Source of the DNA: an uncultured Planctomycetaceae bacterium
Lineage (GTDB): Bacteria > Planctomycetota > Planctomycetia > Planctomycetales > Planctomycetaceae
Reading direction: 5' to 3'
Assembly (NCBI GenBank): GCA_964400945.1
Contig: CAYNWT010000001.1
Span: 1 to 53,545 of the forward strand
Length of the DNA: 53,545 bases
Under the pieces are notes generated by a model. That model was not told the DNA's origin and ran no database searches. It saw only the letters and a list, made by a program, of their open reading frames with translations. How positions within the stretch are numbered: the stretch's first letter is position 1; every line of letters begins with the position of its first letter. Position numbers and translations under genes: made by a program. Shown one piece after another: positions 2,296-43,277 of the stretch.

Positions 2296-2307
2296 GTCAC
2301 TGTCGCT

Positions 2308-3305: not shown

Positions 3306-4970
3306 ATGGCACGTTACACCAACCCGGCAATTGGCGAACTCGCAGCACAGCAAATGAAGTACGCTCCGCGCGATGTTCGACTCGAACAGATCGAACGCGC
3401 TGAGAAGCTGATTGAGGCGATCGACCAAAAGCAGAACTACCAGTACCAGGATCTTTGTCATCAGATCACTTCGTATCGACCAGAGCGGTACCCGGACCTC
3501 GCGCTGCGTGGCACAGAAGCCGTGCGCGATTTGCGCTGCTTTGTGGAAGACCTGTCCGACAGCATCGACCTCGATGTGAAGCAAATGAACGAGCCTGTCC
3601 TGACCGTGGACGAGGTCAGCAAGAGGTACAACGTCTCAACAAAGACAGTTGATCGCTGGCGGAACCGTGGTCTGGCGAGTCGTCGATTCCTCTTTGACGG
3701 CCGTAAACGCGTTGGTTTCCTGATGTCCACAGTTGAGCGGTTCGTTGCAAAAAATGGTGACGACGTTCTGCGTGGAACCCGGTTCAGCCAGCTGACGATT
3801 TCAGAAAAAGAAGACATCGTGCGTCGCGCTCGACGACTGGCTCGATACGGAGCCTGTCCGTCGGAAGTCAGCCGACGCCTCGCGAAGAAACTGAAACGTT
3901 CGCCTGAGACGATTCGCTACACGGTTCGAAATTACGACCGTGAGCATCCTGGAACAGCCGTGTTCCCGAACGCGACGGAACCACTGACAGACGACAAGAA
4001 GCGAACGATCTACAAGCAGTACCGCCGTGGAATGGCTGTTGATCGCCTGGCGAAGCGTCACTGCCGAACTCGCGCGAGCATCTATCGCATTATCAGCGAG
4101 GTGCGGGCGGTGCAGTTACTCGAACAACCGATCGAGTACATGGATAGTGAGGAGTTCCACACGAAGGACGCGGACAAGGTCATCTTGTGCAAGCCACCGG
4201 CGCGTGACCCGAAGAAGAAGGCCGTGAAGGCACCTCCGGGACTACCGGCCTACCTCGCAAGCCTGTACACAGTGCCACTGTTAACTCGTGAGGAAGAGGC
4301 CCACTACTTCCGCAAGATGAACTACCTGAAGTTCAAGGCTTCGGAACTGCGTGAGAAGCTAAATCCGACTCGGCCAAGCGGCCGGGAGATGGATGCGATC
4401 GAGAAGCTGCTCGACAAGGCGACCGACGTAAAGAACTTCCTGATCCGCAGCAACCTGCGACTGGTGGTTTCTATCGCCAAGAAGCACGTGAAACCGAGTT
4501 CGAACTTCTTTGAGATGGTCAGCGATGGCAACATGTCGCTCATCCGGGCGATCGAGAAGTTCAACTACACACTTGGCAACAAGTTCTCCACCTACGCAAC
4601 ATGGGCAATCATGAAGAACTTTGCCCGTTCGATTCCGGCCGAGCACAAGCAGTTGGATCGGTTCCGGACCGGTCACGACGAGATCTTCTCCGGCTCACGA
4701 GACGATCGGGCGAATCAGTTCCAGCAGGAAATGATCAACCAGACCCAGCATTCGCTGATCATGTCGATCCTGGATCGGCTGGATAACCGGGAAAAGGACA
4801 TCATTCTGCACCGGTTCGGCCTGGAGCAGGGAACTGAGCCCGAGACCCTTGAGCAGGTTGGAAACCGGCTGGGCGTGACGAAGGAGCGGATTCGACAGCT
4901 TGAGTCACGGGCTCTGAGGAAGCTGAAGAAGATTGCTCAGGTCGAAAAGCTGGATATTCCTGGCGTCTAG
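3306..4970 (+). CDS. sigma-70 family RNA polymerase sigma factor (RpoD-like core regions 1.2-4 with a ~300 aa HTH-rich N-terminal extension)
   Basis: Region 2 reads [12 protein letters not shown]...[37 protein letters not shown]. Region 4 reads [29 protein letters not shown]. Confidence 0.9.
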
Positions 4971-5020
4971 GCCGATGTTCGAGAGACTTGCGGAAACGCT
5001 GGTCTGAAATTCACCGACCA

Positions 5021-5060
5021 GTCCCGAGGCGAACCTGATTCGTCTCGGGGCTGTCTTTTT
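5021..5060 (+). terminator. intrinsic terminator downstream of the sigma factor gene
   Basis: An ~11-bp stem (gtcccgaggcg / cgtctcggggc, two G-U pairs) with a 9-nt loop is followed by tgtcttttt. Confidence 0.55.
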
Positions 5061-5123
5061 CGGCGGATCATTCCCGGGCGGGAGAGGCTGGGCGAAAGCT
5101 TGTCTCCATGGCTTTGGGTGACC

Positions 5124-5151
5124 TTGCATGGGGAATGCCAATTGGTATACT
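5124..5151 (+). promoter_or_regulatory. candidate sigma-70 promoter of the tRNA-tuf operon
   Basis: TTGCAT, a 16-nt spacer, then TATACT, followed by a GC-rich discriminator (ccgccgc). It lies ~30 nt upstream of the first tRNA. Confidence 0.4.
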
Positions 5152-5181
5152 CCGCCGCTTATGTTTTTTGCGGCACATGCT

Positions 5182-5254
5182 GCTAGCGTAGCTCAATTGG
5201 CAGAGCTCCGGTTTTGTAAACCGGAGGTTGTGGGTTCGAGTCCCACCGCTAGCT
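5182..5254 (+). tRNA. tRNA-Thr (anticodon UGU)
   Basis: Hand-folded cloverleaf. Acceptor GCTAGCG/CGCTAGC, anticodon stem CCGGT/ACCGG with loop TTTGTAA, T-arm GTGGG-TTCGAGT-CCCAC. Confidence 0.9.
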
Positions 5255-5292
5255 CACGAGTTGTGTCAAATACAATTTGATCCGGCTCACAA

Positions 5293-5374
5293 GGGGGAAT
5301 ACCAGAGTGGCCAAATGGGCCAGACTGTAAATCTGGTGGCTTCGCCTTCGCAGGTTCGAATCCTGCTTCCCCCA
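5293..5374 (+). tRNA. tRNA-Tyr (anticodon GUA), long variable arm
   Basis: Acceptor GGGGGAA/TTCCCCC, anticodon stem CCAGA/TCTGG with loop CTGTAAA, long variable arm, T-arm GCAGG-TTCGAAT-CCTGC. Confidence 0.9.
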
Positions 5375-5435
5375 CATTGTTCGCTGTTGCGTTCATCGAC
5401 CCGAAACGAGAGGTTTACAAGACTGCAACAAGATT

Positions 5436-5506
5436 GCGGGCGTAGCTCAACGGTAGAGCTCCTGCCTTCCAAGCAGGTGGTGTGGGTTCGATTCCCATCG
5501 CCCGCT
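5436..5506 (+). tRNA. tRNA-Gly (anticodon UCC)
   Basis: Acceptor GCGGGCG/CGCCCGC, anticodon stem CCTGC/GCAGG with loop CTTCCAA, T-loop TTCGATT. Confidence 0.9.
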
Positions 5507-5549
5507 CTTGGGTGATTCGAATGGACGCACATGTTGCCACGCAACAACT

Positions 5550-5623
<74 letters not shown>

Positions 5624-5734
5624 CGGCGAACGAATGAGAGTTTGCGTTTCGGTCACGGTGGCCGACCGCTCAAAGAAATATCCTTCAACTGATCGCGGCT
5701 GGGCCGCAACACGCTGAATTCGGAGAAACAACTA

Positions 5735-6931
5735 ATGGCGAAGGACACGTTTGTACGGACCAAGCCACACGTGAACGTGGGCACGATTGGCCACATTGAC
5801 CACGGAAAGACGACCCTGACTGCATCGCTTCTGGCGGTTCAAGGGGCAAAGGGCCTGGCTGAGTTCAAGAGCTACGCTGATATCGCCAAGGGTGGTACTG
5901 TCCGTGACGACACCAAGACGGTCACGATTGCTGTTTCGCACGTTGAGTATGAGAGCGAAACACGTCACTACGCCCACATCGACTGTCCGGGCCACGCTGA
6001 CTACATCAAGAATATGATCACTGGTGCCGCCCAGATGGACGGTGCAATCCTGGTTGTATCTGCCGCTGACGGCCCAATGCCTCAGACTCGTGAACACATC
6101 CTTCTTGCTCGCCAGGTTGATGTGCCTGCTCTGGTTTGCTTCCTTAACAAGTGCGACCTGGTCGACGACGAGGAGCTCCTTGAGCTCGTCGAGATGGAAG
6201 TTCGGGAACTACTCAGCAAGTACGACTTCCCTGGTGATGACATCCCTGTAATCCGCGGTGCGGCTAAGCCAGCCCTGGACAACCCATCAGATGAGTCGTG
6301 CAATGCCTGCATCGCCGAACTGATGGCCGCTTTGGACAGCTACATTCCTGAACCTGAGCGCGACTCAGACAAGCCATTCCTGATGGCGATCGAGGATGTC
6401 TTCTCAATCGAAGGTCGTGGTACGGTTGCTACTGGTCGAATCGAGACCGGGATCATCAAGGTTGGCGAGAAGGTCGCCATCATCGGCCTGAAGGACACTC
6501 AGGAAACGACGTGTACCGGCGTCGAAATGTTCAAGAAATTGCTGGATGAGGGCATGGCTGGCGATAACGTCGGCATCCTTCTCCGTGGTGTTAAGAAGGA
6601 AGAGGTTCAGCGTGGTCAGGTTCTGGCTGCCCCGGGCTCAATCCAGCCACACACGAAATTCGAGGGCGAGGTCTACGTCCTGAGCAAAGAGGAAGGTGGC
6701 CGCCACACGCCATTCTTTAGTGGGTACCGTCCTCAGTTCTACTTCCGTACAACGGACGTAACCGGTGCAACGACACTTCTTGGCGGTGCCGAGATGTGCA
6801 TGCCTGGTGACAACGTTACAGTGGAAGTTGAACTTGGTAAGCCGATCGCCATGGACGAAGGTAGCCGCTTTGCGATTCGTGAAGGTGGCCGAACTGTCGG
6901 TTCTGGCGTTGTGACCAAGATTGTTGAGTAG
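5735..6931 (+). CDS. tuf: elongation factor Tu
   Basis: 398 aa. Motifs [18 protein letters not shown] and NKCD are present, with full-length EF-Tu similarity. Confidence 0.98.
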
Positions 6932-7001
6932 AACGATCTCCGCTTCAGCGGGATCAGAAATAGTCGACCGCGCAGGTCGCCGATGGGCGACCTGCTCGCT
7001 T

Positions 7002-7038
7002 GCCTCGCCGCCGACTGGGTGGATGAGGCTTTTGTTTT
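7002..7038 (+). terminator. terminator/attenuator-like hairpin plus T-tract after tuf (preceded by a 10-bp hairpin at 6972-6995)
   Basis: gcctc...gaggc stem with inner ccgcc/ggtgg pairing, followed by ttttgtttt. Upstream there is a perfect GCAGGTCGCC-gatg-GGCGACCTGC hairpin. rpmG starts only 17 nt later, so this may be attenuation rather than full termination. Confidence 0.4.
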
Positions 7039-7054
7039 CGAGTGAGGTGGTATC

Positions 7055-7210
7055 GTGGCAAGAGAGTACGTTTGGCTGGAATGCACAGAGACCGGTCTTC
7101 GCAACTATCGCGTCATCAAGGAAACTCGGGGTACCGAGCGACTTGAGTTGATGAAGTTCTGTCCGAAGCTTCGTCGGCATACGCTCCACAAGGAATCTCG
7201 TAAAAAGTAA
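7055..7210 (+). CDS. rpmG: 50S ribosomal protein L33
   Basis: Not in the ORF track (51 aa). Hand translation from the GTG at 7055, with GAGGTGG 5 nt upstream, gives MAREYVWLECTETGLRNYRVIKETRGTERLELMKFCPKLRRHTLHKESRKK. It sits in the conserved tuf-rpmG-tRNA-Trp-secE position. Confidence 0.85.
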   Translation: MAREYVWLECTETGLRNYRVIKETRGTERLELMKFCPKLRRHTLHKESRKK

Positions 7211-7222
7211 CGAGCCAAGGTT

Positions 7223-7295
7223 ACGGGCGTAGCTCAATTGGCAGAGCACCGGATTCCAAATCCGGCGGTTGGGGGTTCAAGTCCCTCCGCCCGTG
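7223..7295 (+). tRNA. tRNA-Trp (anticodon CCA)
   Basis: Acceptor ACGGGCG/CGCCCGT, anticodon stem CCGGA/TCCGG with loop TTCCAAA, T-loop TTCAAGT. Confidence 0.9.
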
Positions 7296-7333
7296 TTTTG
7301 CAGAGCTGGCTTCCGTTTGGGATCGCAACAGGC

Positions 7334-7798
7334 ATGTCCGCTGTAAAGAAAAATCAATCGCTCGTACAGGAACTTTTCAAAGTTGACCTGTACAAGAAGA
7401 ACCAAGGGCGGCTTACGCGTCAGCTGACCTTCCTTGGCATCGTATTAGTTGTCGGTTACGGGCTCTGGACTTTGGCAAGTGGCCCGCTGTCGGGATACGA
7501 GCCGGTTGTCCATTTCGGTGTACCGCTCGGCTTGCTGGCAGCCTCAGCATGGATCGCGTTTCGGGCGATTAACTACCCCCGTTTTGCCGACTTCCTGATT
7601 GCTGTCGAAGCCGAGATGGACAAGGTAACCTGGGCAAGTCGGAGCGAGCTGTACCGGGCCACGATTGTGGTTCTGGTGACCATGGTTTTCATGGCGCTTC
7701 TGCTGTTCGCCTACGATCGGATCTGGATCAAGGTCTTCCAGTGGATTGGATTCGTCGTAGAGGCGGCACCCGATGCTGCAGATGCGGCTGCGAAATAG
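7334..7798 (+). CDS. secE: preprotein translocase subunit SecE (three-TM form)
   Basis: ORF 7238..7798 overlaps tRNA-Trp, so the start was moved to the ATG at 7334 (MSAVKKNQ...). The C-terminal VTWASRSELYRATIVVLVTMVFMALLLFAYD segment is SecE-like, and the gene lies just before nusG. Confidence 0.85.
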   Translation: MSAVKKNQSLVQELFKVDLYKKNQGRLTRQLTFLGIVLVVGYGLWTLASGPLSGYEPVVHFGVPLGLLAASAWIAFRAINYPRFADFLIAVEAEMDKVTWASRSELYRATIVVLVTMVFMALLLFAYDRIWIKVFQWIGFVVEAAPDAADAAAK

Positions 7799-7930
7799 TC
7801 TGCCGCAGTCCATTCGCTGATTCTCGAACAAACTCCCGTCGATTCGATTGAAATTGAGCGGCGGAAGTCAGATCATTGTCGATTCCCTTCGCGACGGTCG
7901 CGTGGGGCCCGTACGTTCGCGAGGCCCGTT

Positions 7931-8491
7931 ATGTCTGAGCCTGAACCTGGCACAAAACCGGAACTACTCTGGTACGTGCTAAAGGTACAGAGTAACCGCG
8001 AGCGTTCTATCCGCGATTCGCTGGTGCGAAACATTAAGCGAGAAGGTCTCGAAGAGTTTTTCGGCGAGGTCATCATCCCTACCGAAAAAATCGTGGACAC
8101 AAAAGGGGGCAAGAAGAGGGTTACCGAGAAGAAGTTGTTCCCTGGTTACATCATGGTGCAGATGGACCTGAACGATGAGACTTGGTACCTCGTGCGAGAC
8201 ACCAGTGGGGTGGGTGATTTTACCGGCTCTGCCGGCAAGCCAATCCCAATGCAGCAGCATGAGATTGATCGCATGCTGGGCAAAGAAGAGGAAGAGGAAG
8301 TTGCGGCGCCGAGAATTAAGATTGAATTCTCGCCGGGCGACATTGTGAAGATTAAAGAGGGCACCTTCGAGAGTTTCGAAGGCACAATTGACGAGATTGA
8401 CGAGAGCAGTGGCAAGATTTCGGTTCTGATCGAGATCTTTAATCGAACCACACCAGTCGAGCTCGAGTACTGGCAAGTGGAAGCCGTATAG
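7931..8491 (+). CDS. nusG: transcription termination/antitermination factor NusG
   Basis: [14 protein letters not shown] domain, FPGYIMVQM, and KOW segment [22 protein letters not shown]. Confidence 0.95.
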
Positions 8492-8515
8492 GCTCCCGTT
8501 GTTTAGGCAGGAACG

Positions 8516-8941
8516 ATGGCCAAACAGGTTACAACTGAGATCAAGGTACAGGTTACGGGGGGCCAGGCGACTCCCGCGCCTCCGGTCGGTACTGCGCTTG
8601 GTCCGCACGGGGTCAACATTGGGCAGTTTGTCCAGCAGTTCAACGATCGAACCAAAGATCTGAACGGCACGACTGTCCCTGTCGTGATTACCGTATACAA
8701 CGACCGAAGCTTTGACTTCATCATCAAGAGTCCGCCAGCTGCTGTCTTGCTTAAGCAGGCGGCCGGGATCGCCAAGGGGTCGGGAAGTCCGAAGGCGGAC
8801 AAGGTTGGCACCGTGACCCAAGCTCAGCTGGAAGATATCGCCAGGACAAAGATGGCTGATCTCAACGCCACTGACATTAAGCATGCTGCCAGAATCATTG
8901 CTGGTACTGCCCGGAGTATGGGGCTGGTCGTCGCCGACTGA
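8516..8941 (+). CDS. rplK: 50S ribosomal protein L11
   Basis: 141 aa, with [24 protein letters not shown]. Confidence 0.97.
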
Positions 8942-9008
8942 GTGCCCGCAGAATTTTCGCGAACATGATTCCCGATTGCGGTGTCGCAATCTCACAGGCA
9001 GGTTAAGA

Positions 9009-9707
9009 ATGCCCGCAAAACGAATGAAACATCTCAGAGCCAAGACTGAAGATCTTGGCCCTGTCGATCTAAAGACGGCCGTCAAAACACTGAAGGGCCT
9101 GGAGTCAGACCTCCCAAAAGGCTGTAAGCCTTGTGGGTTCGACCAAACGGTTGAGGTTTCGGTCAGGCTGGGTGTTGACCCAAAGCAGGCTGACCAGTTG
9201 GTTCGCGGCTCGATCGTGCTGCCTCACGGCATCGGCAAGGCTCAGCGAGTCCTGGTGTTTTGCCAGGGTGACAACGTTGGCGTGGCGGAGAGTGCTGGTG
9301 CGGACTTCGCGGGCGGCAAAGAGCTTGCAGACAAGATTAAGGATGGATGGCTGGAGTTCGACGTGGCTATCGCCACTCCGGATATGATGGGCGTGGTTGG
9401 CCCATTGGGTCGCGTTCTTGGCCCGCGTGGAATGATGCCTTCACCGCGAGCTGGAACGGTGACGCCGGAAGTTGAGAAGGCTGTTCAGGAATACAAAGCC
9501 GGTAAGGTTGAGTTCCGTGTTGATGCTGGTTCCAACGTGCATTGCATGGTTGGAAAACTGAGTTTCGACGAACAGAAGCTAACGGAAAACATTGAGGCGT
9601 TGCTTAGTTACATCGACTCGCTGAAGCCAACTGCGGCGAAGGGTACCTACGTTCGAAAAATCTGCGTCTCCGCGACCATGTCGCCTGGAATCATCGTGGC
9701 GGCGTAG
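9009..9707 (+). CDS. rplA: 50S ribosomal protein L1
   Basis: ORF 8883..9707, start moved to the ATG at 9009 ([12 protein letters not shown]...). The GTVTPEV and [10 protein letters not shown] motifs are present. Confidence 0.93.
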
Positions 9708-9730
9708 TCTGTCAACGACAGGATTGAGTT

Positions 9731-10246
9731 ATGAGTAAAGTCATCAAGCAAATGTTGATCGACGACATCACGGGGCGACTTGGCGACCATCGTGACATGC
9801 TTGTCATTGATGTCTCAAGGCTGGATGCGATTAACGCGAATAAGTTTCGCCTCGCACTGGCTGAAAAAGACATTACAGCGCTAACCGTGAAAAACTCCCT
9901 TGCTCGCAAGGCGTTGCATGGAGTCGGCGTAGAGTCATTGGATGACATCCTTTCGGGTCCCTCAACTCTGGTCTGGGGCAGTGAAGATGTTGTCGCACTC
10001 TCGAAAGAGATTGCAAAATGGACCAAGGATCTCGAAGCGATTGAGATCAGGGGTGGCACTGTCGAAGGTGACACTCTTGATGCTGCCGGCGTTGACGCGT
10101 TGGCGAAGAGTCCGGGCAGGGAGGAACTGCTTTCAATTATCGCGGGTCAGATTGCTGGCCCGGGAGCACAGCTGGCAGCACAGCTCAATGGCCCCGGTGG
10201 CCAGTTGGCTGGCCAGATCAAGTCGAAGGCCGACGAGGACGAGTAG
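9731..10246 (+). CDS. rplJ: 50S ribosomal protein L10
   Basis: 171 aa, L10-like, located between rplA and rplL. Confidence 0.93.
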
Positions 10247-10341
10247 GTCAGGCAATGGTTTCCGCCAGAGTGGCGGTTTGACATAACGAATCAATGTTGC
10301 CCGATGGGCGACACTCTTTGACAGCGAAAGGCGCTAGTAAG

Positions 10342-10758
10342 ATGGCAACTGCCGAAGCAACCGAAGCAACCGATTTTGACTCAGCAACAACTGAATTGGC
10401 CGACAAGATTGTCGGACTGACACTACTTGAAGCAAAGAAGCTTTCCGACTGCCTTGAGCAAGTCCATGGCATTAAAGCTGCTAGTGGCGGTGCCGTGGTC
10501 GTCCAGGGCGGCGGTGGTGGGGGTGACGATGCCCCGGCTGAAGAAAAGACGGAGTTTGACGTCGTTCTTACCGGCTTCGGCGACAACAAAATCCCCGTTA
10601 TCAAGGTGGTTCGCGGTGCGACTGGTCTTGGCCTGAAAGAAGCCAAGGAAATCGTCGAGAACACACCAAAGGCGATCAAAGAAGGCGTCTCGAAAGACGA
10701 AGCCGACAAGCTCAAGGAAGAAATCGAGGGCGCAGGCGGTTCTGTCGAAATCAAGTAA
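10342..10758 (+). CDS. rplL: 50S ribosomal protein L7/L12
   Basis: ORF 10294..10758, start moved to the ATG at 10342 (MATAEATE...). It has a Gly-rich hinge and the C-terminal [19 protein letters not shown]...EAGGSVEIK. Confidence 0.93.
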
Positions 10759-11134
10759 TCGCCGGGATAAACGGGTTCGGGTACCGAATTTGCTGTCCGG
10801 CGCCCTTCCCAATGCCCTTCGCATGCGTTACGGTTCTCGCCTGTTTGGTTGAGGTCCGTTTCGTGCTTTGTCGTCTCCCCTGTTCCGGCTGTTGCCTCGG
10901 GACAGGGTACTGGTTCGCAGGTTAAGTTCAGATTTGAACCCCACGCTTGTGAGCCACCAACGGGGGAATTGCTGCTCCGTGAACTTGCGCCGGCTTGTCC
11001 GCTCGTTCTCGTATCTTTCCAGTGTTGCCCATTATCCGGGTGCATTGTCGTCTGCTTGCTGCGCGCGACGTGATGCCCGAAATCGTCCCACCCTTGCGTT
11101 CACCCTTCTGCGGTAGACCCGGAGAACTTTCCGT

Positions 11135-14100
11135 ATGCCAATTTCGTCCGTTCGTACCATCGACGCTGATGAGATTCGTAACTTTGGCAAGATCACAGGC
11201 GAGTATGACCTTGGATCGCTGAATGACATTCAGACGGTCTCATACACGCGCTTGCTACAGAGTGACTCCTCAAAGAAATCGGCCGTACGCCGTGAGCAGG
11301 GCATTGATGGCATCCTGCAGGAAATTTTTCCTATCACGAGCTACGATGGTCAGTACCAGCTTGAGTACGTCAAGTACGAGCTCGGCAAGCCGCGATATAC
11401 GCCAACTGAGTGTCGTCAGCTGCGACTGACCTATGGGCGACCGTTCCGGGTTTGGTTGCGATTGGTGAAAGAGCAACCAATCGAAGAAGAGGTCTACTTG
11501 GGCGATATCCCGATCATGATTGGTGGTGGCGAGTTCATCATCAACGGAGCTGAGCGTGTTGTTGTCAGCCAGTTGCACCGGTCGCCGGGTGTGGACTTTG
11601 TGATGGTCGACGAGCCGGGTGAGCGCAAGACTCACTCGTGCCGAATCATCCCCGAGCGTGGCAGTTGGATTGAACTTGTCGTTGGCAAGAAGGACACCTT
11701 GAGTGTCCGTATTGACCAGAGCGGTAAGTTCTCTGCGATGACATTGCTGCGTGCAATGGACGATGAGTGTTCCACTGACGCCGCACTCATCAACATGTTC
11801 TACGAAACAGAGACCAGTAAGACGACGCCGAAGGCACTCGAGACTCTGGTTGGCCGACACGCCGCGGACGATGTTGTCTACCCGGTCGGCCACGATCGCG
11901 TCGGTGAGATCATCGTGGACGCCGGACGCATCTTTACGGCAGAGATCGTTGAGCAGGTCAAGGAATCCGGCCTGAAGGAAGTTCCGGTCATCAAGACTGT
12001 ACCTGACGTCCTCATCCTCAACAGTATCGGCGAAGACACAACAAGTACTCACGAAGAAGCCCTGCTGCGAATCTACCAGCGGTTGCGTCCCGGCAACCCG
12101 CCGCAACTGGACAAGGCTCGCGATCTGTTTCGCGAAAAGTTCTTCGATGTGAATCGCTATCGGCTTGGTCGCGTTGGCCGTTTCCGTATTAATCGGAAGT
12201 TCGAACAGGGCATTTCCGACGACGAGATGACTCTGCGTCCCGAGGACTTCACAAACTCGATTCGCTACCTCATTCGTCTCCGCACAAACGATGGTTCAGC
12301 GTACGTCGACGACATCGACAACCTTGGTAACCGCCGACTGCGAACGATCGACGAATTGGGAACCGATGAAATTCGGAAGGGCTTCCTAAAGCTGCGTCGA
12401 ACCGTTCAGGAACGAATGAGCCTTAAAGACGTCGAGGAAATGACACCTCGAACACTCATCAATCCGAAGAGTGTTTCTGCAGCAATTGACTACTTCTACG
12501 GTCGAAGTGAGCTGTCTCAGGTCGTGGACCAGACCAATCCGCTCTCGATGCTGACGCACGAACGGCGACTTAGTGCTCTCGGACCTGGCGGTCTGAACCG
12601 TAAGCGTGCTGGCTTCGAAGTGCGTGACGTGCACATCTCCCACTACGGTCGTATTTGCCCGATTGAAACACCGGAAGGTACAAACATCGGTCTCATCTCA
12701 AGCCTCGGCATCTACGCCAAGGTGGATGATTACGGTTTCCTGATTACGCCGTATCGCAAGATCGTGAACACCAAGATCACCGAAGAAGTCGTCTGGCTGC
12801 GTGCCGATGAAGAAGCGTCCGTTTACGTTGTTCCGGCCGACACACCGGTTAAAGGCGGCAAGCTATCAGATCAGCGAGTGCTTGCTCGGTTCCAGAACGA
12901 CGTAATCTGGGCGGGTGCCGATCAGGTTCAATTCATCGATGTTGCACCGAACCAGATGGTCGGTGTTTCGGCCGGTCTCATTCCGTTCCTTGAGCACGAC
13001 GACGCCAACCGTGCGTTGATGGGTTCGAACATGCAGAGGCAGGCCGTGCCGCTCCTGATTGCAGAGCGACCTGTCGTTGGCACCGGTATGGAGCCGATGG
13101 TTGCCGCGAACTCCGGCATGATCGTCCGTGCAGAACGTGCGGGCAAAGTGACTTATGTCGATGCAACTCGCGTCGAGATCGACGGACGTAACTATCCGTT
13201 GCGTAAGTTCGTTGGGCTTAACGAACGAACCTGTCTGAACCAAAAGCCAATCGTCTCAGTCGGCGAGAAGGTGAAACGTTATCAGCCACTGTGTGACACA
13301 GCTGCCACCAAGAAGGGCACGTTGGCACTCGGCCGAAACGTGCTTGTCGCCTTCATGTCGTGGGAAGGCTACAACTTCGAAGACGCGATCATCCTGTCCG
13401 AGCGACTTGTGAAGTCTGACGTGTACACGTCGATTCACCTTGATGAGTTCGATGTCGAGATTCGTGAGACAAAGCTTGGTCGTGAAGAGTTCACTCGCGA
13501 TATTCCCAACGTCTCAGAGAAAGCTCTCCGCCACCTGGATGAAAGTGGCATCGTCAAGGTTGGAACTCGCGTTTCGCCTGGCGATATCCTCGTCGGTAAG
13601 GTCTCTCCGAAGGCGAAGTCTGAACTGACTCCGGAAGAAAAGCTGCTGCACGCGATCTTCGGTCGCGCTGGTGAAGATGTGAAGAACGAATCACTTGAGG
13701 TCCCATCGGGCGTCGAGGGCATCGTGATCCACACCGAGAAATTCTCACGTCGCGGAGCAATGTCCGAGGTTGAGAAGCAGCGTTCGATTGAGGAAGAGAA
13801 ACGCATTTCGGCAGAGGGCAACAAGAAGGTTGCGACGGCGTTCAATAAGTTCCTGCCGGAATTCGAAGGGGCGTTCGGAGCGAAACTGGAGGACGATGAC
13901 GGAGTCAAAATCGGCTCCATGACCGACGACAAGCCGATCGCTGACTTCGCCAAGAACTTCAAGCGCGAATACGAGCTGATGAAGATCCGCGATGACGCGA
14001 AGAAGGAAGCTTGTGCAGAAGTCATGGCCCAGCACTGGCCGTTGGTTGAAGACGAAATCGACATCGCCGAACACGCGATGAACACACTGAAGCGTGGCGA

Positions 14101-35174: not shown

Positions 35175-35882
35175 ATGAGACACCGAGTCCGAGGCCGAAA
35201 GCTCGGCCGCAATTCATCACACCGAAAGGCTATGTTCCGCAACATGGCCGTGAGCCTGATTCGTTCGGTGGCAGTCGATGAGGACGCACCGAACCAACCA
35301 AAGGTTCCAGGGCGTGTTGTCACTACACTGCCAAAAGCAAAAGAACTCCGTCCGTTCGTTGAAAAGCTGGTAACGCTTGGACGCAAGGGTGCGGCGATTC
35401 AACAGGACGCCAGTCAGTTCGCCTCGGGTGCCGAAAAGAACTCAGCTGAATGGAAGAAGTGGCGAGACTCTGATCAGTGGCGTCAGTGGAACCAGGCGAT
35501 GGCTCCTGCGATCGCGTGCCGCCGCAAAGCCTTTGCTCTTCTACGTGATCACCAGGCTGTTCAGATTCTGTTCGACGAACTGGCTGAGCGATTCGCGGAT
35601 CGACCAGGTGGTTACACTCGCGTTGTGCGGTTGGCTCAGGTTCGCCTCGGAGATGCCGGCCAACAGGCCTTCATCGAGTTCGTCGGCGAACGTGATCGGG
35701 TGAAGAGCAAGAAGCGTCAACGACCGACCGTCGAGGACGATGCACCCGCATCAAAGCAGGAAGACGAACCAAAAGCAGAGCAGACCGACGAAAAGCCGGC
35801 TGATGAAGAAAAGCCCGCTGACGAAGCTCCGGCTAAGGAAGACGCTGCTGAGGAGAAGGCAGACGAGAAAGCCGAAGAATAA
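35175..35882 (+). CDS. rplQ: 50S ribosomal protein L17 (unusually long, with an internal insert and an acidic Lys/Glu/Pro/Ala tail)
   Basis: [28 protein letters not shown] and [11 protein letters not shown] are present. It is 235 aa, against my recollection of ~120-130 aa for typical L17. Confidence 0.93.
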
Positions 35883-35955
35883 AGCTGGTCTGGTCGATCG
35901 GATCCTCGAGCGGCTAAAATCGAAACCGACCCCGGCGAGAAGGGAATCTCGAGCC

Positions 35956-36546
35956 GTGACCGGATCTCAAGGACTTTTCGATTTCTCAGCAGCGATGCGC
36001 GAACTGTGCATCGACATCACGCAGCGCCACAAAGAATTCCGTCACATTGACATGATCGATGTGGCGGTTGCTTTTGCGCAGGCCCGACGGAACGTGAGCT
36101 ATGGGCTCCAGGCCAAGCTGACACCAATGCGGTTCGAGCACGGAGCAGAAACAGAGATTCGCGACGGCAAAGAATGGATGGTGCAAAAGCTGATCGTGGA
36201 TGAACGCGAGATGCTTTACATCCTGACGTTCTATCTGCCCCGTTTTCTGAACCTCGACTTCGACGAGAAGCTCACCACCATCTTTCACGAGCTGTATCAC
36301 ATCAGCCCGAAGTTCGACGGTGACATACGCCGATTCGGCGGCCATTTCTACGTGCACTCGCACAGTCAGAAGGAATACGACGCTCAGATGGCAGTCTTCG
36401 CCCGCGAGTATCTGAACGCCAAACCGCCCGGACACCTGCTGACATTTCTACGCCACAGCTTCAAATCGTTGCAGGAAGAACACGGTGGGGTTGTCGGCTT
36501 GCAGATCCCTATACCGCGTCTGATTCCGAAGCGGAAATCCGCGTAG
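35956..36546 (+). CDS. HExxH-motif putative zinc metallopeptidase (start uncertain: GTG 35956 or ATG 35995)
   Basis: The 5' part of ORF 35740..36546 overlaps the rplQ tail in another frame and was discarded. The motif TTIFHELYHISPKFDGDIRRFGGH is present. I have no confident family name. Confidence 0.6.
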   Translation: MTGSQGLFDFSAAMRELCIDITQRHKEFRHIDMIDVAVAFAQARRNVSYGLQAKLTPMRFEHGAETEIRDGKEWMVQKLIVDEREMLYILTFYLPRFLNLDFDEKLTTIFHELYHISPKFDGDIRRFGGHFYVHSHSQKEYDAQMAVFAREYLNAKPPGHLLTFLRHSFKSLQEEHGGVVGLQIPIPRLIPKRKSA

Positions 36547-36594: not shown

Positions 36595-37224
36595 CTACGC
36601 GATGCCAACCCCAAACGCGTCACCTTCTTCAAGGTGCGAAGCCCGTAAGCTCTTCCTCGCGGGCGCTTGGTTGTGCGGACCACTGACTGGTTCTGGTTGG
36701 TCTACACGCCGCTCAAGAGTATCGGGCAGTGCTACAGCCGGCTTCTCGGCTGGGGGACTCGTTGAAGCCGGTGCCACGTCCGGCTCGTCGTAGGCTTCAG
36801 CAAACGACGATTCGCCATAGTCGTCGTAGCGGCAGATATACCCCGGCTCTCTCGCTTTAACCTGTTCCTCATTGAACGCGTCCAGGACCTTACTTTGGAT
36901 CATCTCACGGCACTCCGTGTTGATCGGGTGCGCAATGTCAGCGTATAGCTTCGCGCGGCCACTGTGATCACGAATGGCGCGTTCCTGGTTTAGTTTGCTG
37001 CCACAGTTGCTGCAGAAGCCCGCGCGGAGCTCGTTCTTGTTACCGCACTTTGAACAGCGGTCGTTCAGCTTGCGGCTGGGCATGGCGACGAACGGGCCAC
37101 GCGTGCCCTGAATGATCTTGAGGTCACGGATCACGAAGGATCCATCGATCGTGATTGAACAAAACGCCTGCAGGCGATCGTTCGGTTCTTCCATTAATTT
37201 GATGCGGACTTCGGTAATCTCCAT
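36595..37224 (-). CDS. spoVG: SpoVG-family protein with an inserted CxxC-x10-CxxC zinc ribbon and a ~100 aa C-terminal extension
   Basis: MEITEVRIKLMEE...LQAFCSITIDGSFVIRDLKIIQG..GPFVAMPSRK...DIAHPIN aligns with the canonical SpoVG core. It lies just downstream of ispE on the minus strand. Confidence 0.8.
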   Translation of the reverse strand: MEITEVRIKLMEEPNDRLQAFCSITIDGSFVIRDLKIIQGTRGPFVAMPSRKLNDRCSKCGNKNELRAGFCSNCGSKLNQERAIRDHSGRAKLYADIAHPINTECREMIQSKVLDAFNEEQVKAREPGYICRYDDYGESSFAEAYDEPDVAPASTSPPAEKPAVALPDTLERRVDQPEPVSGPHNQAPARKSLRASHLEEGDAFGVGIA

Positions 37225-38552: not shown

Positions 38553-39881
38553 ATGAAGCTGCCAGTCATTGAACGCGTCATCAACTTGCTTGATGAGAAC
38601 GACAACACGTTCCTGAATACGACTTACGAACAGGCTGAGGTCTGCGTGCGTGAGGGTGATGTCGATGGCGTCCGCGCGATTGATGGCCAGTTCGCAATTC
38701 TGGCAAAGAACCAACACATCGTGCGGATGGCTCGCTCGATCGGTCGTCCGATGCGGTACTTCCTCGCGAAGCAGAAGGCTGGCCCGTGTTTGGTTGTCGC
38801 CGAACGCATGGACGAGATCCTTGAGTTCCTGAAGTCCGAAGGCATAGACGATCAGTTTCATCCGTCGTACACGCGGATGGTGCCGGCACATTTCATTGTT
38901 GAACTCGCGCTCGTGGGATGTCCTGATCCCAACCCCACGAACACTCGCTTCTTCGCGCCGCAACAGAACCAACTCAGCACGGACCTGGACGAGATCGGCG
39001 CGGCCTACATCGGTGCGGCTGCGAAAGAGATCGACTCGTGGCTGAACTCGATTCCGGACGATGCGCCGATTGGTGTCCTGTTTTCCGGCGGCATCGATAG
39101 TGGAGCCGTGTTCCTGCTGATTCACGACCTGCTACTCAAACGTGGACAGGCTCCGCAGCGGCTGAAGGCGTTTACGCTGTCGGTCGACGGCAATGGGCAA
39201 GACGCGGCGCAAGCGGAACAGTTCCTCGGTGAACTGGACATGAACATGTTCCTCGAAGTCATCGAGGTTCCAAAGTCGGCCGTCGATTACCGCGAAGCAG
39301 TTCGCATTATCGAAGACTACAAACCGCTGGATGTTCAATCGGCGACGATGGCCGTGGCCTTGTGCAAGGGAATTCGCGAACGCTATCCCGACTGGAAGTA
39401 TGTGCTGGACGGCGATGGTGGCGACGAGAACCTCAAGGACTATCCGATTGAGGACAATCCAGAACTCACCATTCGCAGCGTGCTGAACAATATCATGTTG
39501 TATCACGAAGGCTGGGGCGTGGACGCGGTAAAGCACTCGCTGACTTACTCGGGCGGACAAAGTCGTGGCCACGTTCGCACGTCGGCGACCGGCAAAGCAT
39601 TCGGGTTCTCGGGCTTCAGTCCGTTCGCGGTACCGAACGTGATTGAAGTTTCCGAAGGCATTCCATTCATCGAACTGACGGACTGGGACCACGAAAAGCT
39701 GTACGCGCTGAAGGGCGAGGTATGTCGTCGCGGTGTCGAAGCCATCACAGGCAAGACGATGCCGGTATTCGAGAAGCGACGGTTCCAGCATGGAGCCGGC
39801 AACGAGAGTGCGGCGAGCGACTTATTCCCTGCCGATCCGCAGGCCTATCGCGATGCGTTCGCGGAAATGTTCTCCGAGTAG
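38553..39881 (+). CDS. asparagine synthase/beta-lactam synthetase-like PP-loop adenylating enzyme lacking the N-terminal Cys nucleophile
   Basis: ORF 38415..39881, with the ATG at 38553 preferred (GAGGG 6 nt upstream; MKLPVIERV...). The PP-loop SGGIDS is at 39084-39101, followed by LDGDGGDENL. The N-terminal domain is Ntn-like (DGQFAIL) but has no Cys2. Confidence 0.75.
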   Translation: MKLPVIERVINLLDENDNTFLNTTYEQAEVCVREGDVDGVRAIDGQFAILAKNQHIVRMARSIGRPMRYFLAKQKAGPCLVVAERMDEILEFLKSEGIDDQFHPSYTRMVPAHFIVELALVGCPDPNPTNTRFFAPQQNQLSTDLDEIGAAYIGAAAKEIDSWLNSIPDDAPIGVLFSGGIDSGAVFLLIHDLLLKRGQAPQRLKAFTLSVDGNGQDAAQAEQFLGELDMNMFLEVIEVPKSAVDYREAVRIIEDYKPLDVQSATMAVALCKGIRERYPDWKYVLDGDGGDENLKDYPIEDNPELTIRSVLNNIMLYHEGWGVDAVKHSLTYSGGQSRGHVRTSATGKAFGFSGFSPFAVPNVIEVSEGIPFIELTDWDHEKLYALKGEVCRRGVEAITGKTMPVFEKRRFQHGAGNESAASDLFPADPQAYRDAFAEMFSE

Positions 39882-39883
39882 AC

Positions 39884-40834
39884 GTGTTCCCAACGTTCAC
39901 CGACGACGACATTCTCGAGATTCGGGGAGCGAAAAACCCGGTTCGACACGATCGAGCGTACGCATTTCACGTCGAACCCGAATGCGGTGCCAACGGCAAG
40001 GTCGAAGATGTTGCGACTTTGTTCCTGACGAACCGCGAGTGTCCGTTTCGTTGTTTGATGTGCGACCTGTGGAAGAACACGACGGACGAGCGTGTTCCTT
40101 TCGGAGCGATTCCGGATCAGATTGACCATGCGTTCCTGCAGATGCCCGAGTTGAGGCGCGCGAAGCACATCAAGCTTTACAACAGTGGGAACTTCTTCGA
40201 CGCTCAGGCGATTCCACCAGGAGACTGGGAGGCGATCGCTGAACGTGTTCGCCACTACGACACGGTGATCGTTGAGAACCATCCGAAGCTTTGCGGCGAC
40301 AAGTGCGTAAAGTTCCGCGACATACTGGGGACCCAACTGGAAATCGCGATTGGACTGGAGACGATTCACCCAGACGTCCTACCACGACTCAACAAGCAGA
40401 TGACAGCGGACGACTTCCGAAAAGCTGTTGAGTTTCTTGTCGAGAACGACATTCGCGTCCGCACTTTCGTCCTCCTGCGTCCGCCGTTCCTTTCTGAAGA
40501 AGAAGGCGTCGAGTGGGCTGTGAAGTCCATCGAGTTCGCATTTGATTGTGGGGTTTCGTGTTGCGCTGTCATTCCAACTCGCGCTGGCAATGGCATCATG
40601 GAAACACTCGCGATGAATGGGCAGTTCACACCGCCAAAGCTGGAATCGCTTGAGTACGTGCTCCGACACGGCATTGATATGGTTCGCGGGCGGGTGTTTG
40701 CTGATCTCTGGGACATCGAACAGTTCGCCGACTGCGACAAGTGTGTGGCTGAACGCAAAGAGCGGCTGAATCGGATAAACCTGACGCAGCAACTGCTGCC
40801 ACCCGTTGAATGCGACTGCGAGTCCAGTCAATGA
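39884..40834 (+). CDS. radical SAM enzyme (CPFRCLMC = Cx3Cx2C)
   Basis: ORF 39722..40834. The in-frame GTG at 39884 lies 2 nt after the upstream stop. The Cx3Cx2C motif is at 40040-40063. The motifs KLYNSGNFFD, IAIGLETIHPDVLPRLNKQMT and LLRPPFLSEEE remind me of Elp3/TIGR01210-type radical SAM proteins, but this is unverified. Confidence 0.75.
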   Translation: MFPTFTDDDILEIRGAKNPVRHDRAYAFHVEPECGANGKVEDVATLFLTNRECPFRCLMCDLWKNTTDERVPFGAIPDQIDHAFLQMPELRRAKHIKLYNSGNFFDAQAIPPGDWEAIAERVRHYDTVIVENHPKLCGDKCVKFRDILGTQLEIAIGLETIHPDVLPRLNKQMTADDFRKAVEFLVENDIRVRTFVLLRPPFLSEEEGVEWAVKSIEFAFDCGVSCCAVIPTRAGNGIMETLAMNGQFTPPKLESLEYVLRHGIDMVRGRVFADLWDIEQFADCDKCVAERKERLNRINLTQQLLPPVECDCESSQ

Positions 40835-42327
40835 AGCTGCGGGTCGACGTCGCAATTCTTGGATCAGGGTTTGGCGGCAGCCTGCTGTCGCTGATTCTGA
40901 CAAAGCTTGGCAAGCGGTGTGCTCTCATCGACAAGACGGCTCATCCTCGCTTCGCAATCGGTGAATCATCGACGCCGCTGGCGGACTTTGTTCTCTCGGA
41001 TCTAGCAAGGGGTTACGACCTGCCAGACGTGTTGCCATTGGCTTCGTTTGGAACCTGGCAGCAACGCCATCCGCGAATCGGATGCGGGCTCAAGCGTGGA
41101 TTCAGCTACTTCCATCACTCGGCCGGACTGCCGTTTCGAACGGATGAGAACAACAGCAATCAGTTGCTGGTGGCCGCGAGCAGCAACAATGATGACTCAG
41201 ACACACACTGGTACCGCGCGGACGTAGATCAGTTCTTGTTCGATCAGGCGCGTGAGGCTGGCGTCGAGTGTTTTGAGAACACAAGTGACATCCAGATTGA
41301 TCGTGAGACGACTTGGAAAGTCATCGCTGCCGACGTCGACATTCGATGCGACTACATCATTGACGCATCCGGTGCGGCAGGTGTTTTGTTGAAGTACCTC
41401 GGCATACAGGATGCCACACACGAGTTGCAGACCAACTCGCGAGCGATCTACGGACACTTTGAGGGTGTGCGCCGCTTTCAGGATATTCTGCTGGATGGGG
41501 GAATTGACACAAACCAGCATCCATACACCTGCGACAACGCCGCGCTGCATCACGTGCTTGAAGACGCATGGATGTGGAACCTGCGATTCTCGAACGATCT
41601 CGTGAGTGCCGGGGTCTGTTTCGATGCGAATCGGACCAGTGCTCAGCTCGGTTCCACCGAAGCCTGGACTCGCTGCGTGGAACGCCACCCATCAATCGCT
41701 GCGCAGTTCGAAGTTGCATGCGTGCGGAAGGAAGTCGGGCTGCGCGCGTCTGGCCGATTGCAGCGAATGCGGTCATCAGCGGCTGGCGTGGGCTGGTTCG
41801 CCTTGCCGCACACTGTCGGGTTCATCGATCCGCTGCACAGTACGGGTATCGCGCATACGCTCTCGGCTGTCGAGCGGATTGCGCGGTTGTTCGAAACAAA
41901 GTCGCAAGACGATCAGGCAGCGATAAGGGACTACGACGAAACATTGCGGAAGGAACTTCGGTTCATCGACCGTCTCGTCAGCGGTTGCTACCAGACCCTT
42001 GGCCGACCACGGATGTTTAACGCCTGGTGCATGCTGTATTTCGCAGCAGCTCATTCGTGTGAGATGCGGCGGATCGATGGAGAGCTTGCGTTTGAGAAGG
42101 GCTTTCTCGGTGCGCTCATTCCGAAGTTGCGCAAAACAGTCGATGCACTGCAGTTGCCGCTGAGTATCTCGCTTCAGTCTGTTGATCCATCAGCCGTTGC
42201 GACGTTTGAGAGTGCAGTTCGGCACGCCATCAAGCCGTTCAATCTCGCAGGACTGATGAACGATGACGCGGGCAACATGTACGCCAACACCGCACCGCCG
42301 CGAAACCTTGGGCAATACGGCTATTGA
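40831..42327 (+). CDS. FAD-dependent oxidoreductase, flavin-dependent halogenase/monooxygenase-like
   Basis: ORF 40810..42327. The ATG at 40831 overlaps the radical SAM stop (ATGA). It has VDVAILGSGFGGS (GxGxxG), FAIGESSTP, GLKRGF and WMWNL (compare the halogenase WxWxIP motif). Confidence 0.7.
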   Translation: MKLRVDVAILGSGFGGSLLSLILTKLGKRCALIDKTAHPRFAIGESSTPLADFVLSDLARGYDLPDVLPLASFGTWQQRHPRIGCGLKRGFSYFHHSAGLPFRTDENNSNQLLVAASSNNDDSDTHWYRADVDQFLFDQAREAGVECFENTSDIQIDRETTWKVIAADVDIRCDYIIDASGAAGVLLKYLGIQDATHELQTNSRAIYGHFEGVRRFQDILLDGGIDTNQHPYTCDNAALHHVLEDAWMWNLRFSNDLVSAGVCFDANRTSAQLGSTEAWTRCVERHPSIAAQFEVACVRKEVGLRASGRLQRMRSSAAGVGWFALPHTVGFIDPLHSTGIAHTLSAVERIARLFETKSQDDQAAIRDYDETLRKELRFIDRLVSGCYQTLGRPRMFNAWCMLYFAAAHSCEMRRIDGELAFEKGFLGALIPKLRKTVDALQLPLSISLQSVDPSAVATFESAVRHAIKPFNLAGLMNDDAGNMYANTAPPRNLGQYGY

Positions 42328-43277
42328 ACTCCGCCGTAACCGCGTCGCTTTGGTTGCGGATTAACTTCGACCAGCAGTTTGTTCGGGCCATCAGGTGTGA
42401 CTTCGAATCTCAGTCCGCTGGTTTCGTACTTGCTGTGCAGAGTCGATACAGGAAGGCCATGGTCCTTCACGTGATCTGCAGTTCCATCATAGATGACAAT
42501 CTGCATCACGATCGCCTGGTTCATTCCAGCAGCAGCTCCATCGTCACGAGTATAGGTGCCGAGTACAAAGCTCCCGTCCTCCTTGATCGTGCCGTTGGCT
42601 GTTGTACCTGCTTCGGACCGCAACTCAATCTTGCCCGTCTTCACCGGCGCACCGTTCTTGAAGACAACTCGCCCGCTAACGGGATAGACAGGGACACGCC
42701 CGTTGTCGCACCCCTTCGGCATGAGAGCAACGCCGGCCACGAGAATCAGCCCCGCGAAAACGAGGTACAGCGGCTGCTCCCGAAACGTCTCCAGAATCTG
42801 TTCTTTCGAACTGAACTTCTCTCGGATCTCAACTTTCAAGGCCACACGCTCGGCTGACGGAGCAGGCTGAACCGGAATCGTTGCCGGACGCAGCTGCTGC
42901 ATGGCCACAGCAGCAGCTGCAGCGGTGACCGTGTTCGGTGTGGCCTCATCCGATTCCACAACGTCTTTGTCTTCGATCGCGGACTGGATTGGCGAGACTT
43001 CCACTATCTCCGATACGTCAGGTACCGGTTGTTCGATCGGGTGCGTCAGCACATCCATCGGATCAAACGGTTGGTCCGTTTCGCTTTCGGCCTCGGTCGC
43101 GGGTGCCTGGCCCAAATCTGTCGGTGGGTCGGACGCGTCATTCGAGACGGCGGCAGATTCCGACACGCTCGGTATGGCAAACTGACTGCCGCAGTCTGGA
43201 CAGTCACCCGCAGTCCCGGCGAGGTCATCGGTGATGCGCAGGCCCGCTTCGCAATGAGGGCACTTCATGCGGATCAT
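42321..43277 (-). CDS. zinc-ribbon / single-TM / carboxypeptidase-regulatory-like (transthyretin-fold) domain protein
   Basis: The N-terminus MKCPHCEAGLRI...GDCPDCGSQFAIP is an MJ0042-type zinc ribbon. It is followed by an acidic linker, a TM helix PLYLVFAGLILVAGVALM and a beta-rich C-terminus (VSGRVVFKNGAPVKTGKIELRS...GSFVLG). It lies immediately downstream of the DUF1559 gene. Confidence 0.65.
   Translation of the reverse strand: MIRMKCPHCEAGLRITDDLAGTAGDCPDCGSQFAIPSVSESAAVSNDASDPPTDLGQAPATEAESETDQPFDPMDVLTHPIEQPVPDVSEIVEVSPIQSAIEDKDVVESDEATPNTVTAAAAAVAMQQLRPATIPVQPAPSAERVALKVEIREKFSSKEQILETFREQPLYLVFAGLILVAGVALMPKGCDNGRVPVYPVSGRVVFKNGAPVKTGKIELRSEAGTTANGTIKEDGSFVLGTYTRDDGAAAGMNQAIVMQIVIYDGTADHVKDHGLPVSTLHSKYETSGLRFEVTPDGPNKLLVEVNPQPKRRGYGGVQ

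Follow-up and report, generated by a model that had tools for sequence, protein, structure and literature searches.

Organization of the g1-g2-g3 locus and families of its products

The stretch of DNA analyzed here (the window) spans positions 1 to 53,545 of contig CAYNWT010000001.1 from an uncultured Planctomycetaceae bacterium and carries three tightly packed open reading frames (ORFs) on the forward strand between positions 38553 and 42327, hereafter g1, g2 and g3. They encode, respectively, a 442-aa homologue of AsnB-fold, PP-loop ATP-dependent ligases/amidotransferases with a presumably dead glutaminase (g1, 38553–39881), a 316-aa radical S-adenosylmethionine (SAM) enzyme resembling RaSEA/TIGR01210 (g2, 39884–40834) and a 498-aa flavin-dependent halogenase-like enzyme (g3, 40831–42327). 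The ATG of g1 (38553–38555) is preceded by GGGTGAGGG, and its TAG stop codon (39879–39881) lies 2 nt ahead of the GTG that opens g2 at 39884. The TGA of g2 (40832–40834) in turn shares bases with the ATG of g3 (40831–40833), thus forming an ATGA overlap, and the g3 frame ends at 42327. The 2-nt gap and the overlap predict that the trio is a co-transcribed operon. A mechanical ORF call would open g1 as far upstream as 38415; thousands of homologues are 441–443 aa long, and their alignment begins at the Met of MKLPV, from which we set the true start at 38553. An earlier reading of the letters alone (the original prediction) had proposed these ORFs, their junctions and a set of diagnostic motifs, all of which were recovered in place, and the family that it had suggested for each product was borne out by the searches described below.

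The g1 product belongs to the AsnB-fold PP-loop synthetase superfamily. Pfam Asn_synthase (PF00733) matched it at 4e-14 and 53.4 bits (gathering threshold 21), over residues 169–304 only, and both the PP-loop SGGIDS (S178–S183; 39084–39101, + strand) and GDGGDE (residues 287–292) are unchanged across 25 orthologues and align with SGGLDS and GEGSDE of AsnB. Scores of 44 bits against TIGR01536 (cut-off 267) and 26 bits against NF006949 (cut-off 499) left the protein below both AsnB equivalog models, and the Pfam scan returned no GATase_6 or GATase_7 domain. The cysteine nucleophile is absent, as first noted: g1 begins MKLPV and its orthologues MxxxxxIER. This missing N-terminal Cys, together with the sub-cut-off scores, rules out a glutamine-hydrolysing asparagine synthetase (TIGR01536/AsnB). 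A PDB sequence search retrieved E. coli AsnB only (E 0.002–0.03), with alignments confined to ~130 residues around the PP-loop. Foldseek, on the other hand, placed the AlphaFold2 (AF2) model of g1 next to AsnB, beta-lactam synthetase and carbapenam synthetase (CarA), with E values of 1e-6 to 1e-4 for these three, as well as human ASNS and TsnB9. The predicted local distance difference test (pLDDT) score of this model exceeds 90 for residues 140–250 of the synthetase domain; the model is poor at residues 1–137 and 295–341, and the N-terminal domain, with a shallow alignment, scores below 50.

The N-terminal 160 residues of g1 are highly conserved in the orthologue alignment. By eye, the segments DGQFA..., SIGRPMRYF... 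and LVVAERMDEI look similar to the distal half of the glutaminase domain of AsnB; should this likeness hold, the glutaminase domain of g1 would be truncated and catalytically dead, yet very conserved. As a whole, g1 shares SGGxDS, GxGxDE and the overall C-domain fold with AsnB, beta-lactam and carbapenam synthetases, TsnB9 and lasso cyclases, and the lack of an N-terminal Cys nucleophile with beta-lactam synthetase and lasso cyclases. Unlike the class II amidotransferase synthetases, which measure about 500–650 aa, it has a shortened N-terminal domain within its 442 aa and a unique invariant insertion, NPELTIRSVLNN...GGQSRGHVR. A lasso cyclase (C protein) was also considered and rejected, since 82 loci revealed neither a conserved small ORF nor B-protein neighbours, that is, a recognition element (RRE) for peptides made by ribosomes and then altered post-translationally (RiPPs) or a transglutaminase-like protease. 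The best 120 homologues are 68–88% identical to g1, and the family is narrow (736 clusters at 50% identity, E<1e-3). A single metagenome scan for the context of divergent g1 subfamilies yielded one weak locus.

The CX3CX2C cluster motif of g2, CPFRCLMC (C53, C57 and C60; 40040–40063, +), is kept in 18 of 18 aligned orthologues, and its AF2 model (pLDDT 91) matches many radical SAM structures, which places the protein in this superfamily; the Pfam Radical_SAM score (PF04055, 28.2 bits) lies slightly below the 29.5-bit cut-off. TIGR01210, the RaSEA model, aligned almost end to end with g2 (7.7e-36, 123.9 bits, profile positions 9–297 of 313), short of the curated equivalog cut-off of 212.15 bits. 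The best PDB neighbours of the model are Elp3 radical SAM domains (Foldseek E 7e-08, TM about 0.5), followed by pyruvate formate-lyase activase and others, so that both relatives named at the outset, TIGR01210 and Elp3, were retrieved. Unlike Elp3, the 316-aa g2 has no match to an acetyltransferase (KAT) domain, and the similarity in sequence is insignificant (E 0.7); g2 is not Elp3. Nor is it the archaeal RaSEA proper: its partner is AsnB-like, neither tRNA-guanine transglycosylase (TGT) nor ArcS occurs in the neighbourhoods, and the hosts are bacteria. Pfam and NCBIfam scans found no SPASM or twitch domain in g2. A C-terminal cysteine quartet (40733–40819, +), with C284, C287 and C312 invariant and C310 at least 90% conserved, is a possible second metal site. 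Homologues of g2 number more than 7600 in a database clustered at 90% identity, and the best 120 of them, Salinibacter among these, are 60–75% identical.

The closest solved relatives of g3 are the phenol halogenases PltM and CtcP, matched in PDB searches at 5e-43 and 2e-39 with the single sequence and at 9e-71 and 5e-67 with the family profile; pyrrolyl-carrier and other halogenases matched much more weakly. Pfam assigned Trp_halogenase (9e-18) and also FAD_binding_3. The alignment with PltM and CtcP extends over about 400 residues and conserves GxGxxG, HPRFxxGE, the catalytic Lys and GFIDPLxSxG; IGES, GLKRGF and WMWNL are likewise all present in g3. The FAD motif GSGFGG (G11-S-G13-F-G-G16) is invariant in the family. 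K88 (41092–41094, +, within GLKRGF), invariant in 23 orthologues and kept in at least 95% of 43, aligns with PltM chain residue 107, that is, native K87 after a 20-residue tag, which we take to be, like K79 of PrnA, the catalytic lysine of flavin-dependent halogenases. In contrast to PltM and CtcP, g3 reads FIDPLHS for FIDPLFS and WxWxLR for WxWxIP. In the latter segment (W247-M-W-N-L-R-F253; 41569–41589, +), W247, W249, L251, R252 and F253 are invariant and align with WLWVIPF of PltM and WMWIIPF of CtcP, so that both Trp residues are kept and the change to WxWxLR is family-wide. g3 could be a halogenase, because the catalytic lysine is retained, or an oxygenase, because the motif thought to prevent oxygenation (WxWxIP) is altered; its relatives make an electron-rich aromatic ring its most likely substrate. 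Halogenation by g3 is in any case a prediction for an enzyme that, unlike PltM and CtcP, is encoded outside any polyketide or pyoluteorin cluster. The NCBIfam equivalogs CmlS, GoxB, LodB and QhpG scored 45–67 bits, below all of their cut-offs (240–900 bits); the GoxB, QhpG and LodB matches have E values of 1e-12 to 1e-14, and the geranylgeranyl reductase family matched weakly (1.6e-11). The g3 homologues are less conserved than those of g1 and g2, with 43–69% identity among the best 120. Collectively, these searches assign each trio protein to a known superfamily, yet to none of the characterized families tried.

Recurrence, co-inheritance and neighbourhoods of the trio

In a pattern scan that took a single genome for each GTDB species, at least 579 of the 600 stretches among the matches listed encode a g2 relative. 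The best 80 of these loci belong to Planctomycetota, Rhodothermales, Bacteroidia (Maribacter, Roseivirgaceae, Cyclobacteriaceae and Saprospiraceae), Gemmatimonadota, Acidobacteriota, Verrucomicrobiota and a few others. Linkage was scored by tblastn in those loci with enough flanking sequence. g1 lies directly upstream of g2 in 47 of the 74 loci with upstream room, and g3 directly downstream in 41 of the 65 with downstream room. Where both sides could be read (60 loci), the complete g1-g2-g3 arrangement occurs 25 times, g2-g3 14 times, g1-g2 12 times and g2 alone 9 times; Salinibacter sp. 10B has the trio in identical order. Adjacency in dozens of genomes of different phyla is far beyond chance, which answers positively the question of co-conservation across phyla that the original prediction had raised. 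A 5.2-Mb assembly with a lone g2 carries g1 and g3 1.2 Mb away, 38 kb from each other; therefore, the genes co-occur even when unlinked. The loosest member is g3: about one third of the loci, and every Bacteroidia locus, lack a neighbouring copy. The PP-loop, the Cys triad, the FAD motif and K88 remain intact in the orthologues, with none of the degeneration that would have spoken against active enzymes.

Across phyla, g1 and g2 each retain 55–72% identity, and their neighbour-joining trees resolve the same major groups: the window sequence with Fuerstiella-type planctomycetes, Rhodothermales, Gemmatimonadota and Acidobacteriota nested among planctomycetes, and Bacteroidia plus Gemmataceae as a separate clade. 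These matching groups indicate that g1 and g2 have been inherited together and, as far as the trees can tell, were probably also transferred together.

The surroundings of the trio are not constant. Neither ORF clustering (82 loci) nor Pfam profiling of 224 first and second neighbours uncovered a further conserved partner, and neighbours recur only by lineage: Bacteroidia have FG-GAP/ASPIC proteins, planctomycetes DUF1501, and Fuerstiella a phosphoglucomutase-family gene. No core biosynthetic gene, transporter or regulator is conserved across about 80 loci, and in 82 loci no small ORF that could encode a precursor peptide and lies up to 700 nt from the module is common to more than 3–5 close relatives. 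The absence of a transporter, regulator, lasso B-protein or precursor, previously noted for the window alone, hence extends to the relatives. No riboswitch or other Rfam element was found upstream of the trio in the window or in 8 loci; an AdoCbl-II riboswitch directly after the Salinibacter g3 (L001, 10754–10833, +) lies upstream of class I ribonucleotide reductase genes and belongs to that operon. PADLOC matched no trio protein to a defence family, and no copy was found in viral contigs. Pfam, NCBIfam, PADLOC and PDB searches, by sequence and by fold, gave superfamily-level matches only, with no known pathway. We found no curated functional family or PDB entry for any of the three proteins, and nothing on this gene set in the literature on TIGR01210, RaSEA, combinations of asparagine synthetase, radical SAM enzyme and halogenase, or Planctomycetes. 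The combination is therefore undescribed in the resources searched, consistently with the initial view that it could be assigned to no pathway.

In the window, the trio is flanked by ispE, divergent from g1 and scoring above the TIGR00154 cut-off, and by a DUF1559 protein with an N-methylation motif, both as first annotated, together with a SpoVG homologue and a PALP enzyme; a large ribosomal-protein/rpoBC/secY/rpoA region lies farther upstream. The SpoVG homologue (36595–37224, −) is of unusual architecture, with an inserted zinc ribbon (Pfam Zn_Ribbon_1, residues 57–78) and a long Pro/Ala-rich acidic tail. Between rplQ and spoVG, a 268-aa ORF (35740–36546, +) has an HELYH (HExxH) motif and a weak match to 'putative phage metallopeptidase' PF18894 (1.9e-06). 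A convergent gene (42321–43277, −) shares the last 7 nt of g3 and encodes a protein with an N-terminal CxxC...CxxC zinc ribbon (weak LysW-like match), an acidic linker, a predicted transmembrane stretch and a beta-rich C-terminal domain. A five-tRNA cluster around tuf (5182–5622 and 7223–7295, +) heads the rpoBC/ribosomal-protein region, which takes up most of the window on the upstream side of the trio.

Several other loci showed features of their own. In six Bacteroidia loci (L051, L069, L061, L038, L052 and L056, about 1300–12600), g1-g2 without g3 lies on the same strand between genes for very large FG-GAP/VCBS and ASPIC-UnbV (CRTAC1-like) proteins, and in L083 an FG-GAP/ASPIC-like protein is encoded 5 kb upstream. 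Three related planctomycete metagenome-assembled genomes (MAGs) without an adjacent g1 encode a conserved 76-aa protein (MADKFDPYREA...) just upstream of g2 (L002, 7521–7751; L003, 7615–7845; L004, 7621–7851; all −). Another planctomycete locus with g2-g3 and no g1 has a divergent gene for QueC (7-cyano-7-deazaguanine synthase) adjoining g2 (L031, 7154–8017, −). The g1 orthologue of L042 (6038–7802) seems frameshifted in its MAG, and the g3 match there covers residues 22–208 only, pointing to possible pseudogenization or an assembly error. Finally, a pair of MbnB/TglH/ChrH-family and HvfC_N genes ~6 kb upstream of a stand-alone g2 (L084, 2247–4085) is probably unrelated.

A candidate ligase-lyase chemistry and its alternatives

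The module is self-contained and strongly conserved amid arbitrary flanks, which speaks against a tailoring cassette that belongs to some larger gene cluster. Strong constraint combined with arbitrary flanks favours enzymes whose substrate is already produced by every host, and a stand-alone conserved function fits these data better than secondary-metabolite decoration. Such a substrate would be a common metabolite, a cofactor or a macromolecule. We tentatively propose, as one possible explanation, that g1, g2 and g3 act on a substrate made elsewhere in the cell, where a ligase and a radical lyase would install an amide or amidine nitrogen and g3 would halogenate or oxygenate. g1 would adenylate a carboxylate or carbonyl oxygen of the substrate with ATP and, because the glutaminase active site has been lost, would join a donor amino acid, through its amino group, to the activated group, with lysine as the precedent, in place of glutamine-derived ammonia. 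g2 would then cut the C-N bond on the donor side through a 5'-deoxyadenosyl radical, so that the substrate would retain the nitrogen in a primary amide or amidine and the skeleton of the donor would depart as an aldehyde or imine. g3, as an O2- and FADH2-dependent member of the phenol-halogenase clade, would halogenate, and possibly hydroxylate, an electron-rich ring of the same substrate, and would be dispensable or replaced in some lineages.

The homology of g2 to RaSEA is the most informative one for mechanism. In Euryarchaeota, ArcS transfers lysine to the nitrile of preQ0-tRNA and the lyase RaSEA, which works only in complex with ArcS, converts preQ0-lysine to archaeosine by removing the lysine skeleton radically and leaving its nitrogen as formamidine (PMC11298593). 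As a full-length RaSEA homologue, g2 may be a bacterial sister of this archaeosine-synthase beta subunit, and its gene is likewise paired with one for an enzyme able to attach an amine to an activated carbon. g1, which keeps the adenylation site and has lost the ammonia-generating domain, is by analogy a natural candidate for an 'alpha subunit' equivalent to ArcS, and a physical g1-g2 complex would be expected. Unlike the archaeal pair, g2 is bacterial and falls below the family cut-off, its partner is an ATP-dependent AsnB-fold protein instead of the TGT-like, PUA-containing ArcS, and the trio lacks a preQ0/TGT context and includes an extra halogenase-like gene. The proposed scheme would thus amount to a two-component logic like that of ArcS-RaSEA, with another partner and with a flavoenzyme in addition, and not to a categorically new one.

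Ligation of an amino acid followed by its removal is well known from central metabolism: PurA/PurB, PurC/PurB and ArgG/ArgH attach an amino acid at the expense of ATP or GTP and then cleave it to leave only the nitrogen. PEARL and Amm14 act in the same manner in ammosamide biosynthesis (PMC12715798). By analogy, g1 and g2 would follow the same logic as these ligase-plus-lyase systems; unlike in them, the enzyme families are unrelated and cleavage would be radical-SAM-based. The ammosamide pathway as a whole, which has a halogenase and an AsnB-like amidotransferase, was considered as a counterpart and rejected, as its architecture is unrelated (PMC12715798).

Several points weigh against the ligase-lyase proposal. 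The sub-cut-off score makes g2 a paralogous subfamily whose chemistry may differ from that of RaSEA. g1 could use free ammonia, like NH3-dependent NadE or AsnA-type enzymes, or make a lactam intramolecularly, as beta-lactam synthetase and lasso cyclases do. Apparent g1-g2 fusion proteins were discarded, the long candidates being upstream-extended or frameshifted reading frames. The link of g3 to the g1-g2 chemistry may be loose, because g3 is absent beside g2 in about one third of loci and throughout Bacteroidia. Profiling of the neighbours revealed no conserved flavin reductase gene near the trio, a further difference from the PltM and CtcP systems; housekeeping flavin reductases could supply FADH2 to a halogenase. 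As to the substrate, the acidic predicted isoelectric points (pI) of g1, g2 and g3 (4.8–6.1) and the absence of RNA-binding and peptide-recognition domains make a small molecule or a basic protein slightly more likely.

An unlikely alternative is that the three enzymes alter a nucleobase of tRNA, rRNA or DNA, in a bacterial equivalent of archaeosine-type chemistry, with g1 adenylating a base carbonyl or carboxylate (as TilS, QueC and GuaA do), g2 processing the adduct like RaSEA and g3 oxidizing or halogenating the base. The sole characterized g2 relative indeed acts on tRNA, the nearest structures are those of tRNA-modifying Elp3 enzymes, and PP-loop enzymes often target nucleobases. Very high conservation, scattered locations and housekeeping flanks are all typical of modification enzymes, and the QueC gene beside g2 in L031 would fit as well. 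However, the Pfam scan detected no RNA-binding domain (PUA, THUMP or TRAM) in the trio, the three proteins are acidic, g1 is of the AsnB class and not of the TilS or QueC class, the nearest g3 relatives use free phenols, and neither TGT nor any other deazaguanine gene is consistently nearby.

The original prediction had envisaged a compact tailoring pathway for a small molecule, nucleoside or peptide. Taken further, the module would be a compact cassette that makes or tailors a halogenated small molecule, either a secondary metabolite or a signal, such as a phenolic amide carrying chlorine or bromine. The families, motifs and co-conservation on which it was built stand; its framing as a compact tailoring pathway is not supported, given the lack of a conserved core gene, precursor, transporter and regulator, the unrelated housekeeping flanks, the 55–72% identity across phyla and the dispersed genes of the 5.2-Mb assembly. 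We hold a halogenated product of this kind to be unlikely as well. It would account for the position of g3 in the PltM/CtcP clade with the halogenase lysine kept and for the many marine or halophilic hosts, and a signal would have a precedent, the product of PltM being itself a small signalling molecule. Such a high identity between phyla is, however, unusual in secondary metabolism; the neighbourhoods share no core synthase, regulator or exporter, some genomes carry the genes dispersed, and Bacteroidia have no g3 beside g1-g2.

Less probable is that the trio post-translationally modifies a peptide or protein whose gene lies elsewhere. In this scheme, g1 would form an isopeptide or lactam in the manner of a lasso cyclase or amidate a C-terminus, g2 would introduce radical cross-links, and Trp or Tyr would be halogenated or hydroxylated by g3, as by MibH, LodB, GoxB and QhpG. 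Lasso cyclases are among the AsnB homologues without the Cys nucleophile, but g1 is about 150–200 aa shorter, and the 82 loci lack a conserved small ORF within 700 nt. No RRE, protease or exporter accompanies the trio, and g2 has no SPASM/twitch match. The GoxB, QhpG and LodB matches of g3 speak for a protein substrate, although free-phenol halogenases fit g3 about 50 orders of magnitude better than LodB/GoxB. Acidic enzymes would suit a basic protein, and the logic of ligase, radical SAM enzyme and hydroxylase recalls EpmA/B/C, which modify EF-P in that way.

A connection to isoprenoid metabolism, for instance through the modification of a quinone, carotenoid or hopanoid precursor, with g3 as a ring hydroxylase, halogenase or reductase, is a weak lead and very doubtful. 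It was suggested by three different methylerythritol phosphate (MEP) pathway genes that adjoin the module in three arrangements: ispE in the window; ispA (FPP synthase), dxs and g2 on one strand in L080 (4882–8885), with a dxs-g2 gap of 40 nt and no g1 or g3 nearby; and ispD (4587–5342) after g3 in L025. About 3 adjacencies against ~0.25 expected over about 141 neighbour slots is about ten times chance, but the pattern caught attention post hoc and loses significance once the many noticeable pathways are allowed for; each MEP gene was moreover seen only once, at sites that are classic housekeeping neighbourhoods. The weak match to the geranylgeranyl reductase family would fit such a role; g3, however, fits halogenases far better than reductases. 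That the three genes are functionally unrelated neighbours is extremely improbable: flanks do vary and every pairing can be broken, but adjacency recurs in at least six phyla and in every pairwise combination, start and stop codons overlap or nearly so, the genes co-occur when dispersed, and the g1 and g2 trees are congruent.

Significance of the module

The module is widespread, well defined and experimentally tractable. Hundreds of species carry it, from phyla that are dominant in the environment (Planctomycetota, Bacteroidota/Rhodothermota, Gemmatimonadota, Acidobacteriota and Verrucomicrobiota), and g1 and g2 are as conserved as core housekeeping enzymes, in spite of the lack of a curated functional family, structure or paper for any member of the trio in our searches. 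It offers a compact, testable entry to the function of a bacterial branch of the RaSEA family, so far known only from archaeal tRNA modification, to the role of a glutaminase-less and highly divergent AsnB relative, and to the question of what keeps a PltM/CtcP-type halogenase-like enzyme conserved away from natural-product clusters. A bolder proposal, unlikely on the evidence above, is that g1-g2 represents a previously unrecognized, widespread type of bacterial amidotransferase, in which an amino acid would be ligated and then cut off by a RaSEA-like lyase on a conserved cellular target (a cofactor, a quinone or isoprenoid precursor, a nucleobase or a protein residue), with a genuine flavin halogenase in a housekeeping-type pathway. 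If true, ligation followed by radical lysis would constitute a new route of nitrogen delivery in metabolism.

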